The notes below the pieces were generated by a model. It saw only the letters and a list, made by a program, of their open reading frames with translations, searched no databases and was not told where the DNA came from. This document shows, in pieces, positions 9,600 through 45,757 of a stretch of 51,152 nucleotides of DNA (positions within the stretch are counted from its first letter, which is position 1; each line of letters opens with the position of its first letter). This DNA comes from a virus (taxonomy: Duplodnaviria > Caudoviricetes): IMG/VR virus record IMGVR_UViG_3300021373_000228, positions 1-51,152 of that record; one strand, written 5' to 3'. The translations under genes and the position numbers were made by a program.

Positions 9600-9774
9600 T
9601 AAAGAACTCTATGAAGCATTTCTTAAACATGTAGATGATTTAATCTACCTACAGCATAAACAAATGGAGCAGGCTACAGAGCCTGTGGTGTTCTACAGAG
9701 CGCAGGGTGCTGTCTCTACTCTGCGTAAGCTAAAGTTACTAAGGGAACAGGTAAACGATGGATCAAAGCCCTAA
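9571..9774 (+). CDS. Small hypothetical protein following the portal
   Basis: YRAQG...LRKLKLLREQV motif; overlaps both neighbours. Confidence 0.7.
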   Translation: MSNLKPLVNNKELYEAFLKHVDDLIYLQHKQMEQATEPVVFYRAQGAVSTLRKLKLLREQVNDGSKP

Positions 9775-12739
9775 GCCTAAACTTCGCCCAAAGCTTCGCT
9801 TATCATACGATGATCTTAAAAAGATTGAACGTGTTGTTAATGAGGAAGCTAAGGGTGAGGGTGTAGAAGGAAGGAACGCTATTCGTGGCGTTATATTCAA
9901 TCGTTTAATGTCAGATAGATTTCCTGACAGTGTAGATGAAGTTCTGTCACCTAGAGAGTTTGAGCCAGTAGGCAAATATGGGTCTATTGATAAAATACCT
10001 GTTAACGAAGATACTCTACTTGAACGCCTCACAGAAATGGCTGACTATATTCAGTATGGTGAGGATGCATCTAAGGGTAGCACTTTCTTCCTTAACAAAA
10101 AGCTAGCCAAGAAACGTAAGACAGATTTTGGTGGTAAGGGTGGTATGACTATTGGTAACCACACTTTTTATAAAAGCTATGAAGGGCAGGAACCTGTAGA
10201 AGATATTAACTTCTCTCACAACATTGAAGTGTCTTATGATGGTTATGATGAAGGTGGTTTTATAGAGGGTTCTAAAAAGCGAAATAGCAGGCGCAGTGAT
10301 CCTAAAGGATTATATAAACAACGTGTAGAAGAATCTGATGCCTATGAAAATATAGCAGGTATGATACCCGGTATAGGTACTGCTATGACCTTTACTGATA
10401 TAGAAAACGAGCTTAAAAAAGAAGAACCTGATTATCTAAAAATAGGTATGCTAGCAGGTACAGAAGCTATAGGGCTTATACCCGGTCTTGGTACTGCTGC
10501 AAAAAGTATGATCCGTAAAGGTGCTGACATGGCAAGGCAAACGGATGAGGTTGTAGAAGTAGCAAGTAATGTACCAAAAGTAACTAAAACTACATATAAT
10601 AATACAGTAAAAGCATACAAGTTATTCACAAAAGGTGAGGACGGAAAGCTTTATCCTTTGTTTGTAGACGCAGACACAGAGGTGCCTTTAGGACAGTACA
10701 TGAAGGCTGTATTTCCAGAATATCGTTTTAAAGCAGAGAACGGTAACTTTTACGTACCTTCGCGTGGTACTGCTGGTAAAAAAGGTACAGGTGACAGTAT
10801 CAAAATACCTGACCAAGAAACAAGAGATATGCTTATTGAGGCAGGTTTCTTACCTAAAGGCTCTAAAGCAAAAACCATTAAAGCTGTTGCTGCAAGACCG
10901 GGTTGGCACGCTGGTGATAATCCTACTGCCGCGCATATTGGTCCAGAAATTAAGATAGACGGTAAAACATACAAGATACGTGGTGAAGATCAAGTATGGG
11001 CTGAAGTAGAAATGCCTGCAGATGTAGATTGGCAAGCTATTGCAGATAGCCGCGCTATTTTAAAAAAAGATGGTACGCCTAACGTAAAAACTGCGCACAT
11101 TACAGATGAACTACCTTTTGGTGGCTACTATCGTTATAAAACCAACCCTAATATGCAAGGTAATTGGCTTATTAGCGGTGACATGAAAGTTAATCGTATT
11201 TTAGATCGTGACGAGGTAAAACGATTAAATGCAGAAGCAGGTGTTGAAGATTTGCCTACAGAGGCAGAATTAAGAGAGCAATTAGGCAACGGCTTTGCCG
11301 CTGGTGGATTAGCAGGAGAAGATATGTACCAAGGTGTTGATGATTACCAGATGGCAGAAATGGGTGCTGGTATGAAAGAAGGTGGCATGATGTTTAAATC
11401 ATCACGCGGCTTAGCAATGAATGAAGGTGGAGAAGTAGGTGAAGCACCTGATACAACAGTCGGTGTAGACCCTGTATCAGGTAACGAGATTCCACTAGGC
11501 TCTACTGCAGAGAATGTACGTGATGACATCCCAGCGCAACTAAGCGAAGGTGAGTATGTTGTACCTGCTGATGTAGTTCGATACTACGGTGTTAAATTCT
11601 TTGAAGACCTACGCACAGAAGCCAAGATGGGCTTTAAACAGATGCAAGAGAATGGTCGCATTGGTGGTGAACCTGTAGGCATGGAAATGGCAGGAGATGA
11701 CCTACCGTTTGACATTTCTGAGTTACAGATGGTTGATGATGGTGAAGAACAACCTATGATGGCTGCAGGTGGCTACATGAAAGCTTATGCACCCGGTGGC
11801 TTTGAAGCATATTCACCTGCTGATTATCAACCCGGTGGCTCTATGGGTACTGGCGGTATTGAAATTGTTAAATATGTACACCCTGATGGACGCGAGATAT
11901 TTGTACAATTCATGAATGGCACCCCTCTAACAATGATTCCAGAAGGTTTTGAAAAAGCAGCAACTGCAGAAGAGCAGGTGGCAGAGGGTGTAACTGAACA
12001 AGTAACTCGTACTAATAATAATGATGATAGTGGACCAAGCACACCTATTGAGGCACCAGAGCCTATTGATTGGTCTAACGAGGCTACAGTAGAAGATTTC
12101 CAAAACTATGCTGATCGTCGTGGTGGGTTTGGTCAAAAAGCCCTTGCTACAGGTGTAGGTATGGTTGCAGGTTTACCCGGCCTTGGTTTAGTAAGATTAG
12201 CACAAAAAATGGAAGACAGTAGAGTTCGTGAAGGTCTTAAAGATCAGATTGAAGCTGCTAATGAAGCAGGTAATACACAAAAGGCTGCTACGCTTCAAAC
12301 CATCCTAGACGGTATGGATAAGCCAAAAGATAAAGAAAAAGATGATGGTAAAGCTATCTTTGGTGGTAAATCTAGTCTTTATGAAGACCTAGAATCTATG
12401 GATGACCCCACTAAACAAGGTGATTTCGGTGATACATGGTTGGGTGATCTACTAGGCTTTGATGATGACGGATTTGGTGTGCAAGGTGATTCACTAGCGG
12501 ATTCACTAGGTGGATCACGTAGAGATGGTAAACCCTCAACCACAACTTCATCAGGTAAAGATGACGATCCATTCGCCAGCATAGTAAAATCAGGTGATGA
12601 TAGTTCTAAAATTGGTACTGATGCAGGTGATGGTATGACATGGGTTAAATCAGAAAACAGTAATGCGCTTACTAGAGTAAGGGATGATGACCCACGTGCA
12701 AAAGGACAAACCGCCGCTATGCAAGGTTGGGATGAATAA
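9758..12739 (+). CDS. Modular putative virion/ejected protein: SleB-like cell-wall hydrolase, pre-toxin-TG-like helices, RPGWH domain, DDIPAQLSEGEYVVPA core, acidic tail
   Basis: EEAKGEG..G..AI..VIFNR....FPDSV...IGNHTFY (Hydrolase_2); AGMIPGIG..GLIPGLG; AYKLF..LYPLFV..RPGWH..WAEVE..YRYKTNPNM. Confidence 0.75.
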   Translation: MDQSPKPKLRPKLRLSYDDLKKIERVVNEEAKGEGVEGRNAIRGVIFNRLMSDRFPDSVDEVLSPREFEPVGKYGSIDKIPVNEDTLLERLTEMADYIQYGEDASKGSTFFLNKKLAKKRKTDFGGKGGMTIGNHTFYKSYEGQEPVEDINFSHNIEVSYDGYDEGGFIEGSKKRNSRRSDPKGLYKQRVEESDAYENIAGMIPGIGTAMTFTDIENELKKEEPDYLKIGMLAGTEAIGLIPGLGTAAKSMIRKGADMARQTDEVVEVASNVPKVTKTTYNNTVKAYKLFTKGEDGKLYPLFVDADTEVPLGQYMKAVFPEYRFKAENGNFYVPSRGTAGKKGTGDSIKIPDQETRDMLIEAGFLPKGSKAKTIKAVAARPGWHAGDNPTAAHIGPEIKIDGKTYKIRGEDQVWAEVEMPADVDWQAIADSRAILKKDGTPNVKTAHITDELPFGGYYRYKTNPNMQGNWLISGDMKVNRILDRDEVKRLNAEAGVEDLPTEAELREQLGNGFAAGGLAGEDMYQGVDDYQMAEMGAGMKEGGMMFKSSRGLAMNEGGEVGEAPDTTVGVDPVSGNEIPLGSTAENVRDDIPAQLSEGEYVVPADVVRYYGVKFFEDLRTEAKMGFKQMQENGRIGGEPVGMEMAGDDLPFDISELQMVDDGEEQPMMAAGGYMKAYAPGGFEAYSPADYQPGGSMGTGGIEIVKYVHPDGREIFVQFMNGTPLTMIPEGFEKAATAEEQVAEGVTEQVTRTNNNDDSGPSTPIEAPEPIDWSNEATVEDFQNYADRRGGFGQKALATGVGMVAGLPGLGLVRLAQKMEDSRVREGLKDQIEAANEAGNTQKAATLQTILDGMDKPKDKEKDDGKAIFGGKSSLYEDLESMDDPTKQGDFGDTWLGDLLGFDDDGFGVQGDSLADSLGGSRRDGKPSTTTSSGKDDDPFASIVKSGDDSSKIGTDAGDGMTWVKSENSNALTRVRDDDPRAKGQTAAMQGWDE

Positions 12740-12812
12740 AGTTGGACCCGATCCTATAATAATATAAGGCTACCCGGTCTACTTGACTGGCCCCACATAA
12801 AGGAGTAAAAAA

Positions 12813-13772
12813 ATGTCGGAAGCCCAAACTATTGATGTAACATCTGCATCACATTTACGTAATATGGCACGTGTTAAGCGTGATGAAGAAGAACTAGAGG
12901 CACTGAAGCGGCAAGCTCGTGGTGAGACTGATGAAGATCAAACCGACGATACACAGAGTGAACCCAGTAGCGAAGACACTGAGGGAGCCGCAGTTCAGGA
13001 TGCGAGTGTATCTGAACAAGAAACAAAAGAGCAAGTTAAAGCAGAAGCACCCAAAGAAGAACCTGAGGGAGATGCTGGATTAAGTGCTGAAGAAAAATCT
13101 TTCAAGAAACGCTATGGCGATCTTCGCAAGCATATGCAAGAGAAAGATGCTGAGTTCAAGGCACAGCTTGAAGAGCTAAATAATAAGCTGGAGCTAGCAA
13201 CTAAGAATGAGCTAGTACTACCAAAGACAGAAACTGAGGTAGAAGCTTGGGCTAAGAAGTACCCAGATGTAGCAGGTATTGTAGAAGCTATTGCAGAAAA
13301 GAAAGCAGCAGAACGTTCTACAGATTTAGACAATCGTTTAAAAGAGATTGAGGAGCTACGTACAAAAGCTAAGCGTGAGAAAGCTGAAGCTGAGCTAGCT
13401 GCACTACATCCTGATTTCTCTGAGATTCGTGCAGATGATGCATTCCATGAATGGGCTAAGACACAGCCTAAAGTGGTTCAGGATGCTCTATATGAGAACA
13501 CAGAGGATGCTAAATCTGTAGCCCGTGTCATTGATTTGTATAAATCAGACAAAGGTATAAAAACTAAGAAGGACAACAGCGCAGATAAAGCTGCAGCCTC
13601 TTCAGTTAAAACTAAAGGTAAACCCACAATTGATCCACAGGACTCTTCACAGTACCTACGTGAATCAGAAGTAGCTAAAATGTCTATTAAAGAGTATGAG
13701 AAGCGTCAGGAAGAAATCCTAAACGCACAACGCTCTGGGAAATTTATTTATGATGTAACAAAAAGAGCTTGA
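12813..13772 (+). CDS. Capsid scaffolding protein (probable)
   Basis: Acidic coiled coil, FKKRYGDLR, HPDF; directly upstream of the capsid gene. Confidence 0.75.
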   Translation: MSEAQTIDVTSASHLRNMARVKRDEEELEALKRQARGETDEDQTDDTQSEPSSEDTEGAAVQDASVSEQETKEQVKAEAPKEEPEGDAGLSAEEKSFKKRYGDLRKHMQEKDAEFKAQLEELNNKLELATKNELVLPKTETEVEAWAKKYPDVAGIVEAIAEKKAAERSTDLDNRLKEIEELRTKAKREKAEAELAALHPDFSEIRADDAFHEWAKTQPKVVQDALYENTEDAKSVARVIDLYKSDKGIKTKKDNSADKAAASSVKTKGKPTIDPQDSSQYLRESEVAKMSIKEYEKRQEEILNAQRSGKFIYDVTKRA

Positions 13773-13797
13773 CACTCTTAACATCCTAGATAAAACT
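13769..13797 (+). promoter_or_regulatory. Putative capsid gene promoter
   Basis: TTGACA-N16-TAAAACT. Confidence 0.6.
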
Positions 13798-13799
13798 AT

Positions 13800-13832
13800 A
13801 GCATATACACAGCATAAAGTGTGTATGCTTTT
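13800..13832 (+). terminator. Hairpin with short U-tract after the scaffold gene
   Basis: AGCATATACAC-agcataaa-GTGTGTATGCT-TTT. Confidence 0.5.
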
Positions 13833-13836
13833 AAAG

Positions 13837-13949
13837 CACTAGCCACACAAAGAACTACCTCAGATGACAGGCCCAGCGCAGAGAAACAGCGCAGTTTCAA
13901 CGCAAGCTGACTACCCTAGATGACGAGCCTCTTTAGTGGATATGTAGTG
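13837..13949 (+). ncRNA. Candidate structured cis-regulatory RNA in the capsid 5' UTR
   Basis: Nested stems and a duplicated ACTACC..AGATGAC..GCC motif. Confidence 0.45.
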
Positions 13950-13985
13950 TCACTTTTCACGCCATATCTATAAGGAGAATTAATT

Positions 13986-15059
13986 ATGGCTATTACTTCC
14001 GCATCAGGAGGTTTTGACGGTAACTGGTCCCCAGTTATTTATTCAAAACAGGCACAGATTGCCCTACGCAAATCTGCTGTCACAAACGCGATTACAAACA
14101 ACTCTTACTTCGGTGAGATTGCAAACCAAGGTGATGTTGTTCGTATTCAGAAAGAACCAGATGTAACTGTTAACGCACTAGAGCGTCACACAGCTATCTC
14201 TGTAGAGAAATTGAACGATGAAGATTTCTCACTAACAATTGACAAAGCTAACTACTTCGCATTCAAAATGGATGACATCGAAGATCAGTTCGCAAACGTT
14301 GATTATGTTAGCCTAGCTGCTGATCGTGCAGCATATAAAATGGCTGACGCGATGGACTCAGACGTTCTATCATACTTGTCAGGCCACACAACTGCAGGTG
14401 CTAAAATCACTGCTACATCTGGTGATGCACAGCACGACACACCAGCTAACCTATCAGGCGAGTTCTTGCTAGCAAACCACCTAGACGCAACTGATTTTGG
14501 TCAGCTAGGTACTGAAGACGGTCAAGATACACCAGTTGCTTATGCAACAGGTGACTCTATCCCTCTAGCACCACGCCTACCAGGTGCAACAGCATTGTCA
14601 GACCTAACAGTGTCTCCTTTGACTGTTGTAGCACGTATGGCTCGTCAAATGGACGTAGCAAACGTTGATGCACGTGGGCGCTGGATCGTTGTTGACCCGG
14701 TATTTGTAGAGATGCTTAAAGACGAAGATTCACGTATGCTTAACGCGGATTTCGGCGGTGCAGGTCTACAAAATGGTTTGGTATTGAATAACCTACACGG
14801 CTTCCGTGTTTATATTTCAAATAACCTACCAGCAGGCGGCACAGGTGCAGGTACTTCAGGTACAACCGCACAAGATTCCAACTTCGGTGTTATCGTTGCA
14901 GGTCAGGATGAAGCGGTTGCTTCTGCTGAGCAAATCAACAAGGTAGAGAACTACCGTGACCCAGATTCATTCGCAGACATTGTTCGCGGTATGCATCTAT
15001 ACGGTCGCAAAATTCTTCGCCCAGAAGCTCTAGTAACAGCACGTTACAACGCAGCTTAA
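13986..15059 (+). CDS. Major capsid protein
   Basis: YFGEIANQGDVVRI, LTIDKANYFAFKMDDIE, FADIVRGMHLYGRKILRPEAL; strong SD AAGGAG. Confidence 0.92.
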   Translation: MAITSASGGFDGNWSPVIYSKQAQIALRKSAVTNAITNNSYFGEIANQGDVVRIQKEPDVTVNALERHTAISVEKLNDEDFSLTIDKANYFAFKMDDIEDQFANVDYVSLAADRAAYKMADAMDSDVLSYLSGHTTAGAKITATSGDAQHDTPANLSGEFLLANHLDATDFGQLGTEDGQDTPVAYATGDSIPLAPRLPGATALSDLTVSPLTVVARMARQMDVANVDARGRWIVVDPVFVEMLKDEDSRMLNADFGGAGLQNGLVLNNLHGFRVYISNNLPAGGTGAGTSGTTAQDSNFGVIVAGQDEAVASAEQINKVENYRDPDSFADIVRGMHLYGRKILRPEALVTARYNAA

Positions 15060-15072
15060 TTAAAGTAAACAG

Positions 15073-15107
15073 AGAGGCTGGCTATATGCTGGCCTCTTTG
15101 TGCTTTT
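15073..15107 (+). terminator. Rho-independent terminator after the capsid gene
   Basis: AGAGGCTGGC-tatat-GCTGGCCTCT-TTGTGCTTTT. Confidence 0.75.
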
Positions 15108-15127
15108 AACCTATAAGGACATTCCCA

Positions 15128-15565
15128 ATGGCAATTACTACGGCAATGTGCAACAGCTTCAAGCAAGAACTACTTGGGGGTGTTCACGATTTAGATACAG
15201 ATTCTTTGAAGATTGCTTTGATTAAAGCATCTCCTACAGGCACATATGATGCCACAACAACTAATTACTCTGATGTTACAGGTAACTCAGATGAAGCTAC
15301 TGGTACTAACTATACAGCAGGTGGTCAAATTTTAGATAACCCTGTTATTACACTCACATCAGGAACAGCTTACGTTGATTTTGCAGATGAAGTTTTCTCT
15401 AACTTGACGATTTCTGCAGATGGTGCTATTCTTTATAATAGTTCAAATGCTAATCGTGCCATCGCAGTATTTGATTTTGGCGGCACAGTAACAGCTACAT
15501 CTGGTGATTTCACAATTGTGTTCCCTACAAACGATCAGAATAACGCGGTGATCCGTATTTCATAA
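15128..15565 (+). CDS. Virion structural protein
   Basis: MAITTAMCNSFKQELL..D.LKIAL..YTAGG..FDFGG motif; follows capsid. Confidence 0.75.
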   Translation: MAITTAMCNSFKQELLGGVHDLDTDSLKIALIKASPTGTYDATTTNYSDVTGNSDEATGTNYTAGGQILDNPVITLTSGTAYVDFADEVFSNLTISADGAILYNSSNANRAIAVFDFGGTVTATSGDFTIVFPTNDQNNAVIRIS

Positions 15566-45728: not shown

Positions 45729-45757
45729 AGTTATACACTACACATCAACTGTGTCAA
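45729..45757 (-). promoter_or_regulatory. Putative promoter overlapping the end of pol
   Basis: TTGACA-N16-TATAACT on the - strand. Confidence 0.6.

Follow-up and report, generated by a model that had tools for sequence, protein, structure and literature searches.

The leader of the major coat gene in the marine phage genome analysed here contains a conserved and covarying RNA structure, a single long irregular hairpin of about 115 nucleotides (nt) located at approximately 13836-13950 and hereafter called the rod. The genome, referred to as the window, is a 51,152-base IMG/VR virus record (IMGVR_UViG_3300021373_000228) with a completeness estimate of 93%. The rod was found in about 250 contigs and isolates and is common to hundreds of related phages. 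In the clade to which the window belongs, one strand of its lower stem can alternatively pair with the ribosome site of the coat gene. The favoured reading, to which a probability of about 40% is assigned, is that of a translational ON switch in which a probably oligomeric phage protein would bind the loop modules of the rod and thereby free the ribosome site. The gating of a ribosome site by a leader RNA is a known class of mechanism; the architecture of the rod is not a known one.

Two repeat units form one irregular hairpin

The leader corresponds to the 213-nt gap that separates a 319-amino-acid (aa) open reading frame (ORF) from the coat ORF (Table 1). An earlier note on this DNA had drawn attention to two near-identical units in this gap, and everything that it said about the sequence was found to be correct in letters and in position. 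The units (13854-13873 and 13910-13929) are the sole direct-repeat family in 13700-14050 and share 80% identity over 20 nt with a spacing of 56. The CAGC/GCTG and GAAAC/GTTTC stems described between them (P4 and P5 in Table 1) are present and covary in relatives, and the same applies to the AAAGA/TCTTT pairing that encloses them (P1c). The units had been interpreted as two protein-binding sites of a cis-regulatory RNA. An RNA with two binding sites acting in cis would still be the favoured reading, but the units are not separate sites flanking a hairpin.

This conclusion comes from a comparison of 58 distinct leaders, obtained from 82 usable loci out of 83, with two loci having too little upstream sequence; the relatives reported for the region number more than 598. 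Across these leaders unit 1 pairs with unit 2 crosswise: ACCUC in unit 1 goes with GAGCC in unit 2, and ACCC(A/U) in unit 1 goes with (C/U/A)GGCC in unit 2, while AGG of unit 1 and CCCU of unit 2 are constant. The crosswise match of the changes identifies the units as the opposite strands of a single irregular hairpin. The resulting helices, P2 and P3, yield two copies of the same internal loop per rod, a module made of CC opposite (AC)UAC and closed by a G-C pair. The likeness of the two strands gives the duplex a pseudo two-fold symmetry about an axis through the central loop. The units look so similar in the window phage because both strands of this loop are AGAUGAC. Identical AGAUGAC strands were seen only in the window and in three other leaders (L004, L006, L007), the loop being variable elsewhere; such a loop would permit tandem G-A/A-G pairs around a U-U.

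Several other pairings were considered and rejected. A local hairpin inside unit 1 (CCU with AGG) does not fit the ACCC-type leaders, in which GAG of unit 2 changes to NGG and AGG of unit 1 is unchanged. The covarying helices P2 and P3 exclude a pairing between GGCC of unit 1 and GCC of unit 2. Finally, a conserved box on the 5' side of the rod, at 13834-13845, is complementary to the start-codon region 13987-13998 at 10 of 12 positions. This pairing is no better than controls (cognate -7.27 kcal/mol, shuffled -5.48 kcal/mol, start regions of other clades -7.26 kcal/mol) and is absent in other clades.

A long and roughly two-fold hairpin lying between structural genes could also be a processing or stability element, that is, a site for RNase III or another ribonuclease splitting the scaffold and coat messages, or a protector of the 5' end of an abundant coat messenger RNA (mRNA). 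A dimeric nuclease would suit the symmetry, and intergenic RNase III sites with conserved internal loops exist in phage T7. Nevertheless, an RNase III site consists of about two turns of mostly continuous double-stranded RNA, whereas the helices of the rod are 3-6 base pairs (bp) long and are interrupted by 5 x 2, 7 x 7 and 2 x 5 loops. Moreover, its conserved letters are in loops, a promoter-like site of its own lies immediately upstream, and cleavage in the rod would keep the anti-Shine-Dalgarno strand on the coat message. This explanation is regarded as rather improbable.

Conservation and covariation across relatives

RNAalifold on the raw MAFFT alignment of the 58 leaders gave just 10 pairs (-4.96 kcal/mol). 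Four rows without the apical hairpin (L005, L043, L071, L074) were misaligned and were for that reason left out of the seed, together with eight core duplicates, and the resulting model, R1, has 26 bp and is based on 46 of the 58 leaders. A further MAFFT alignment to which four distant cores had been added was discarded on account of misaligned cores.

Model R1 matches a single site in the window genome. Of the 85 loci collected with the CRP-9 coat, 82 had a single match each, on the + strand and 40-140 nt ahead of the coat start, and one + strand match each was obtained in 36 of the 80 loci collected with the HMO-2011 coat. In a mixed set all 100 sources were matched, always on the + strand and upstream of the coat start. 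Model R2, built from these 100 matches, was found in 70 of 91 sources. They comprise 63 of the 80 loci of the HMO-2011 set and MW202701, with CRP-345, CRP-212, CRP-235 and CRP-3 among the phages matched, as well as Sinorhizobium phage phiM6 (E 3.9e-7) and Rhizobium phage RHph_N3_19 (E 4.1e-5). R2 did not match CRP-738, nor the pelagiphages HTVC103P, HTVC115P and HTVC033P (L257, L258, L259), in which the gap between the upstream gene and the coat gene is 31-58 nt. To judge from these searches, the element is absent where this gap is short, as in the pelagiphages.

Base pairing is maintained well above controls. In alignment A6 (100 sequences, 99 distinct rows) 89.1% of cells are paired compared with 69.5% in shuffles (reached in 0 of 500), 23 of 26 pairs have changed on both sides, and controls with slid partners are 35-48% paired. 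In alignment A7 (70 sequences, 59 distinct) the values are 85.3% versus 68.7%, with 22 of 26 pairs changed on both sides; pair counts from A6 and A7 are inflated by the fitting of both alignments to the model, and related sequences share changes. Individual columns of A6 illustrate the exchanges. P1c combines AU 36 with UA 22 (columns 4:170), AU 76 with CG 12 (5:169) and AU 77 with GU 13 and GC 3 (6:168). In the same way, P2 has UA 91 and CG 8 (15:162) as well as GC 55, CG 25, AU 13 and UA 3 (18:161), and the extension of P3 has AU 78 and UA 11 (34:146) and UA 76 and AU 11 (29:152). As judged by eye, P2 extends to 5 bp in leaders of the CRP-9 clade, where it occurs in at least four sequence versions, P3 reaches up to 6 bp in the HMO-2011 clade, and phiM6 fits every element into 70 nt with different helix sequences. 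A compact rod of 65-70 nt that keeps both CC/YAC loops (Y, pyrimidine) on helices of other sequence is thus present in the soil rhizobiophages phiM6 (L255, 637-706) and RHph_N3_19 (L256, 676-740).

In phage MW202701 (L086, 815-1448) an annotated HNH endonuclease gene separates the scaffold-position gene from the coat gene, and the RNA match at 1361-1448 overlaps the final 24 nt of the HNH coding sequence. This overlap indicates that the rod survived beside or partly inside a homing-endonuclease insertion.

The strand on which the element acts can be read from the same data. G-U combinations outnumber A-C combinations by 107 to 48 on the + strand and all matches are on the strand of the coat gene, which points to an RNA read from the + strand. 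These observations bear on the possibility that the repeats act at the DNA level as double-stranded sites for a protein. Direct repeats 56 bp apart, a palindromic centre and a minus strand that folds at least as well (-35.5 kcal/mol, z -1.10) would be compatible with it, but both the strand bias and the crosswise covariation, which preserves base pairs and not repeat identity, argue for an RNA. The earlier note had also considered a standalone noncoding RNA. No terminator is present between the rod and the coat start codon, and the element always lies 40-140 nt upstream of the coat ATG, which speaks for a part of the coat message. A DNA-level element or a separate small RNA is therefore held to be very improbable.

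Besides the helices, unpaired letters are conserved. In module 1 the Y-A-C and the following C are near-invariant among the distinct sequences (99 in A6, 59 in A7), GGCC never varies in A6, and ACC, GGCC, CACCC and GCCUC are invariant or nearly so, so that covarying helices enclose conserved unpaired nucleotides as in riboswitches. A riboswitch would imply that two to three CC/ACUAC modules cooperatively bind a small molecule or an ion, stabilising P1c and opening the ribosome site. Its aptamer-like layout, a switching helix shared with the anti-Shine-Dalgarno strand and the weak thermodynamics of the rod, as expected if a ligand is needed, are all consistent with this idea, and tandem small sites occur in other riboswitch classes. 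On the contrary, the element matches no riboswitch or other family of Rfam 15, its binding site would be very small, and it is always tied to the coat gene, without an obvious metabolite. It was seen in phage contigs only: 150 cellular genomes belonging to a single class, sampled around a metagenome-assembled genome carrying a related phage contig, gave no match outside a phage contig, and none upstream of functionally related cellular genes. The absence from these cellular genomes leans towards a phage factor, and a riboswitch is considered unlikely.

A third copy of the module

The CC/YAC module is not confined to the rod. Outside the clade of the window, a third copy is usual in the first hairpin after the promoter, with a layout consisting of a stem ending in G, CC, a small loop or mini-stem, Y-N-A-C, C and the complementary stem. 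This upstream module was found in 38 of 47 leaders of the CRP-9 clade, 6 of 60 of the HMO-2011 clade, 3 of 8 other leaders and 0 of 31 leaders of the window's clade, compared with a chance expectation of at most 0.3 per group. Accordingly, the first hairpin of the window's clade (13800-13829) carries no module. Searches for other copies in the window gave no enrichment of GGCC/AGCC...CTACC patterns (3 versus 4.4 and 8 versus 8.1 expected).

In part of the HMO-2011 clade (for example L184, L172 and L239), about 60-100 nt upstream of the rod, the first hairpin is devoid of the CC/YAC module, and its loop holds a palindrome, either (U)AGCGCA(A) or UUGCGCAA in kind, similar to the apical loop type of the rod.

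Predicted sequestration of the ribosome site

In the minimum free energy (MFE) fold of the leader (-46.7 kcal/mol), CUCUUUA at 13929-13935 pairs with UAAGGAG at 13971-13977, and 13937-13950 pairs with 13959-13970. The bases of the ribosome site have an unpaired probability of 0.00-0.04 in the thermodynamic ensemble, and the whole leader folds better than shuffled sequences (z -3.23, 2 of 200 as good). Forcing the rod (P1c-P4) gives -41.3 kcal/mol, that is, a cost of about 5 kcal/mol. The strands engaged in this fold supply the 3' sides of P1c, P1b and P1a in the rod, hence the rod and the predicted sequestered fold would be mutually exclusive.

The two partners of this pairing vary together. 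CUCUUU(U)C accompanies the GAAAGG ribosome site in 17 of 17 leaders, compared with none of the 41 leaders with AAGGAG. Each type of ribosome site forms a 7-bp helix in its own register, and one leader (L051) with an extra base on both sides forms 8 bp. Cognate duplexes have energies of -6.9 and -7.9 kcal/mol versus -3.7 and -5.4 kcal/mol for cross-type duplexes. On the coat-gene tree the ribosome site and the anti-Shine-Dalgarno strand change jointly seven times (6 of 6 independent pairs, p = 0.031). Moreover, the MFE fold pairs the ribosome site with the 3' strand of P1c in 32 of 33 leaders of the window's clade and in 39 of 48 leaders of the CRP-9 clade. By these sequence comparisons, anti-Shine-Dalgarno pairing can take the place of the lower stem in the window's clade, and it is predicted to do so in the CRP-9 clade.

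The basal helix is found at the same place in every clade with a clade-specific sequence, and its cognate energies by clade are -10.1, -8.1 and -10.6 kcal/mol, compared with -7.0, -4.8 and -6.8 kcal/mol after shuffling. In 31 of 32, 34 of 36 and 43 of 58 leaders, half or more of its 3' strand has a second potential partner further downstream, 14-22 nt ahead of the start codon, a descriptive count that has no control.

A translational switch as the favoured reading

According to the proposed mechanism, the free leader would hide the ribosome site and keep translation OFF. Recognition of the CC/ACUAC modules by a trans factor would stabilise P1c and the basal helix, so that the ribosome site would be released and translation turned ON. 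This factor would most likely be an oligomeric phage protein made during infection, as suggested by the two-fold arrangement, the two to three modules per leader, the weak rod, the restriction to phage contigs and the site between assembly genes. The gene neighbourhood and the symmetry would make a scaffold- or coat-type assembly protein the obvious candidate. A precedent for an assembly protein acting on mRNA is provided by P22, in which, according to a passage of a preprint, the N-terminus of the scaffolding protein has been implicated in translational autoregulation (bioRxiv 10.1101/2022.12.13.520362). With a switch of this type, coat synthesis could be timed or coupled to assembly in spite of the strong host-type promoter predicted directly before the coat gene.

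Several observations weigh against this reading. The ribosome site is only about 45 nt from its partner, so that a few haplotypes exchanged by block recombination, instead of compensations that arose independently, could account for their seven joint changes. Just 10 of 60 leaders of the HMO-2011 clade pair their ribosome site with the P1c strand, and sequestration is thus not universal in the family. The alternative 3' hairpin does not display both-sided changes beyond one pair (93.3% paired versus 93.1% in shuffles, 108 of 500), and its changes within the window's clade are one-sided (AU 25/GU 22; UG 36/CG 10). The CCAC/GTGG and CACTA/TAGTG pairings that the earlier note had placed at the base of the structure (P1b and P1a) hold in the window, but the closest clade shows only losses of pairs, in 10-11 of 47 distinct leaders; a compensated P1b variant, CCAA/UUGG, is seen in L011-type leaders. 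Taken alone, the rod folds no better than shuffled sequences (-23.7 kcal/mol, z -0.18, 74 of 200 equally good). To these must be added the inflation of the pair counts mentioned above. Finally, the binding protein is putative, and the promoter and the transcript 5' end are predicted positions. For a module as small as 5 x 2 nt, RNA polymerase or a small ligand would be an equally good partner.

The apical loop and possible RNA-RNA assembly

The hairpin that tops the rod has a hexaloop whose centre is self-complementary in 100 of 118 distinct cases, compared with 72.5 +/- 2.8 for shuffled columns (maximum 83 in 2000). Five palindromes were observed, GGCC (81), GCGC (16), UGCA, GAUC and GUAC, and enlarged apices end in UGAUCA or UGUACA. 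The palindromic loop is otherwise unexplained and may indicate loop-loop dimerisation of the RNA. If so, the apical loops would kiss, and a dimer with four modules would be the functional unit, regulatory or structural. The self-complementary centre, which extends to the UGAUCA and UGUACA apices, fits such an assembly. Yet the remaining 18 of the 118 hexaloops, of the GGCA and GGCG types, lack a palindrome, and the signal is mostly plain conservation of GGCC. In addition, the apical part is missing or cut to a few nt in L005, L043, L071, L129 and L146, being enlarged in others, and the existence of members without an apical hairpin means that the apex is not essential to the function of the core. 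RNA-RNA assembly is accordingly viewed as quite improbable.

A more specific version, which is a long shot, would have two coat-mRNA leaders kissing through their apical loops and forming a particle of four (or six) CC/ACUAC pockets. Scaffold or coat oligomers would recognise this particle, which would couple coat translation to procapsid assembly. If true, such a self-assembling leader would be a previously unknown class of regulatory RNA in one of the most abundant marine phage groups.

Relation to known RNAs and significance

The rod has no counterpart among known RNA families. No match to Rfam 15 was obtained over the whole window. In 13650-14100 just three chance-level matches were recorded, with 19, 13.6 and 7.4 bits for thresholds of 65, 40 and 50, and no match at E<=1 was found in the loci of CRP-13, CRP-1, CRP-9 and HMO-2011. 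The earlier description of a structured, pseudo-symmetric RNA without a known family is thus borne out, and the two findings named there as contradicting it, a lack of covariation in relatives or assignment to a known Rfam family, were not encountered. Text searches of the main articles on HMO-2011-type phages did not find a description of the rod, and a search by terms in the main paper on this group returned no passage on an RNA element in the text it reaches (PMC9038755).

Among regulatory RNAs, the rod resembles the translational operators bound by phage coat proteins, regA-type repressors, ribosomal proteins and threonyl-tRNA synthetase. As in these classes, a structured 5' leader would act in cis, with repeated or symmetric recognition elements and coupling to the ribosome site. 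The rod differs from them in that it has no sequence or Rfam relationship to them, its recognition unit is a CC/ACUAC internal loop present in two to three copies, and its predicted logic is activation, whereas the usual operators repress. Riboswitches with a competing P1 helix share with it covarying helices around conserved unpaired nucleotides and a helix, here P1c, that shares a strand with the predicted sequestering pairing. Unlike them, the rod is tied to a virion gene, has an internal two-fold pseudo-symmetry and was not found in the sampled cellular genomes. Kissing hairpins of the retroviral dimerisation initiation site (DIS) type resemble the apex, with a six-nt loop, four self-complementary central letters and alternative palindromes, but in the rod the loop is the tip of a conserved structure of far greater size, belongs to a phage mRNA leader and is dispensable in some members.

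HMO-2011-type phages are not known to have an RNA polymerase gene, and no account of the timing of their late gene expression is known. A covarying leader RNA on the major capsid gene offers a concrete handle on this timing. The published account of these phages presents them as a dominant and widely distributed marine viral group (PMC9038755). The motif is open to bench experiments, as it is present in Sinorhizobium phage phiM6 and in a Rhizobium phage, the hosts of which are tractable laboratory organisms. To RNA biology the rod offers a candidate new Rfam family and a small recurring internal-loop module without a known fold, together with the unusual pairing of an internal two-fold pseudo-symmetry with a self-complementary loop.

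Putative promoter and gene neighbourhood

The coat protein places the window phage among the HMO-2011-type podophages, and it is a marine roseophage with a P22-type coat gene. Its nearest named relatives are the Roseobacter phages CRP-603, CRP-2 and CRP-207, with a DNA identity of 78-85% over 13600-14200. In a Pfam search neither the upstream 319-aa protein nor the coat protein gave a match, and the name scaffold is used for the former by gene order alone.

Table 1. Coordinates of the rod and of the features surrounding it in the window
Feature	Position	Strand	Remarks
Upstream scaffold-position gene	12813-13772	+	ORF of 319 aa; PHROG 13678 (function unknown)
Promoter-like site	13769-13796	+	TTGACA 13769-13774, 16-nt spacer, TAAAAC 13791-13796; overlaps the stop codon of the upstream gene; activity predicted
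First hairpin	13800-13833	+	Arms 13800-13810 and 13819-13829, then UUUU; at the predicted transcript 5' end
P1a	13836/7-13841 (GCACUA 13836-13841) with 13945-13949/50	+	Basal helix
P1b	13843-13846 (CCAC) with 13936-13939	+	Basal helix
P1c	13849-13853 (AAAGA) with 13930-13934	+	Proposed switching helix; covariation
Loop J1/2 (module 1)	ACUAC 13854-13858 opposite CC 13928-13929	+	YAC conserved
P2	CUC 13859-13861 with GAG 13925-13927	+	Covariation
Central loop, 7 x 7	AGAUGAC 13862-13868; same heptamer 13918-13924	+	
P3	AGG 13869-13871 with CCU 13915-13917	+	Extension covaries
Loop J3/4 (module 2)	CC 13872-13873 opposite ACUAC 13910-13914	+	
Apical part	13874-13909	+	P4, P4b, P5; hexaloop AGCGCA 13888-13893 caps P5
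P4	CAGC 13874-13877 with GCUG 13906-13909	+	Changes on both sides
P4b	GC 13878-13879 with GC 13902-13903	+	Changes on both sides
P5	GAAAC 13883-13887 with GUUUC 13894-13898	+	Changes on both sides
Core 3' strand (unit 2)	13910-13929	+	ACUAC, CCU (P3), loop, GAG (P2), CC
CUCUUUA	13929-13935	+	3' strand of P1c, or anti-Shine-Dalgarno strand pairing with 13971-13977
Downstream strand	13936-13970	+	3' strand of P1b/P1a, or alternative 3' hairpin (13937-13944/13963-13970; 13947-13950/13959-13962)
Shine-Dalgarno region and coat start codon	UAAGGAG 13971-13977; 13986-13988	+	
Coat gene	13986-15059	+	ORF of 357 aa; PHROG 'major head protein', E 2.6e-51

The promoter-like site, already proposed in the earlier note, is well conserved. 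The pattern TTGACA-N16-TA(T/A)AAC is kept in CRP-603, CRP-2 and CRP-207 (an alignment of four sequences with the window) and is also present in CRP-1, CRP-9, CRP-13 and HMO-2011 and in most leaders of the HMO-2011 set. In the window it has two exact matches, and five with at most one mismatch compared with 0.90 expected from shuffles. The other exact match, to TTGACA-N16-TAWAAC, is at 45730-45757 on the - strand and may be another promoter of the same type. A generic sigma-70 scan, which demands T at the final -10 position, did not flag 13769-13796; alphaproteobacterial housekeeping -10 elements tolerate a final C. From the position of the -10 element, transcription would start about 7 nt further on, at the base of the hairpin 13800-13829.

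This first hairpin is an inverted repeat with 11-nt arms and 91% complementarity. In relatives the sequence of the arms varies and their complementarity is kept, the alignment being judged by eye. A terminator scan of 12500-15500 did not call it, its stem being followed by just 4 U, whereas an intrinsic terminator would have a G+C-rich stem and 5 or more U within 8. Between the end of the coat gene (15059) and the next ORF (15128), at 15080-15094, lies a hairpin that resembles a terminator and has a U-rich tail. The coat gene looks like a transcription unit of its own with a strong host-type promoter, as far as such signals can be predicted, and for a unit of this kind, running from promoter to terminator, post-transcriptional control would be useful.

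The position of the rod directly downstream of a conserved promoter-like site recalls the put elements of phage HK022. By analogy, the nascent leader would bind RNA polymerase after a strong promoter and alter pausing or termination over the structural genes. This would require no phage protein, the element is phage-specific, and most clades have two structured elements, the first hairpin and the rod, with conserved loop nucleotides. In the published account, the putRNAs (putL and putR) are likewise structured phage RNAs right after early promoters, with important unpaired bases in their stem-loops; they are about 70 nt long, contain a triplex, have their two stem-loops arranged as a V and act on RNA polymerase through the beta' zinc-binding domain (PMC9378689). 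The rod measures about 115 nt and would be coupled to the ribosome site. Compared by description only, one long two-fold rod thus differs from the V of two stem-loops. Moreover, the hairpin at 15080-15094 suggests a promoter-to-terminator unit and not read-through, and the covariation of the ribosome site points to translation. A put-like function is therefore doubtful, to a degree similar to that of a riboswitch.

In public RNA libraries 24 runs contain parts of 13300-14500, all as assembled contigs. In the four runs compared, the contigs span the coat ORF together with parts of the leader, with little upstream of about 13790; contigs of this kind are blind to starts, ends, strand and level.

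Finally, upstream of the scaffold-position gene, a 993-aa protein is encoded at 9758-12739. Its N-terminus carries a cell-wall hydrolase domain (PF07486, E 4.5e-11), and weak PHROG matches to tape-measure-like proteins suggest an ejected or internal virion protein.

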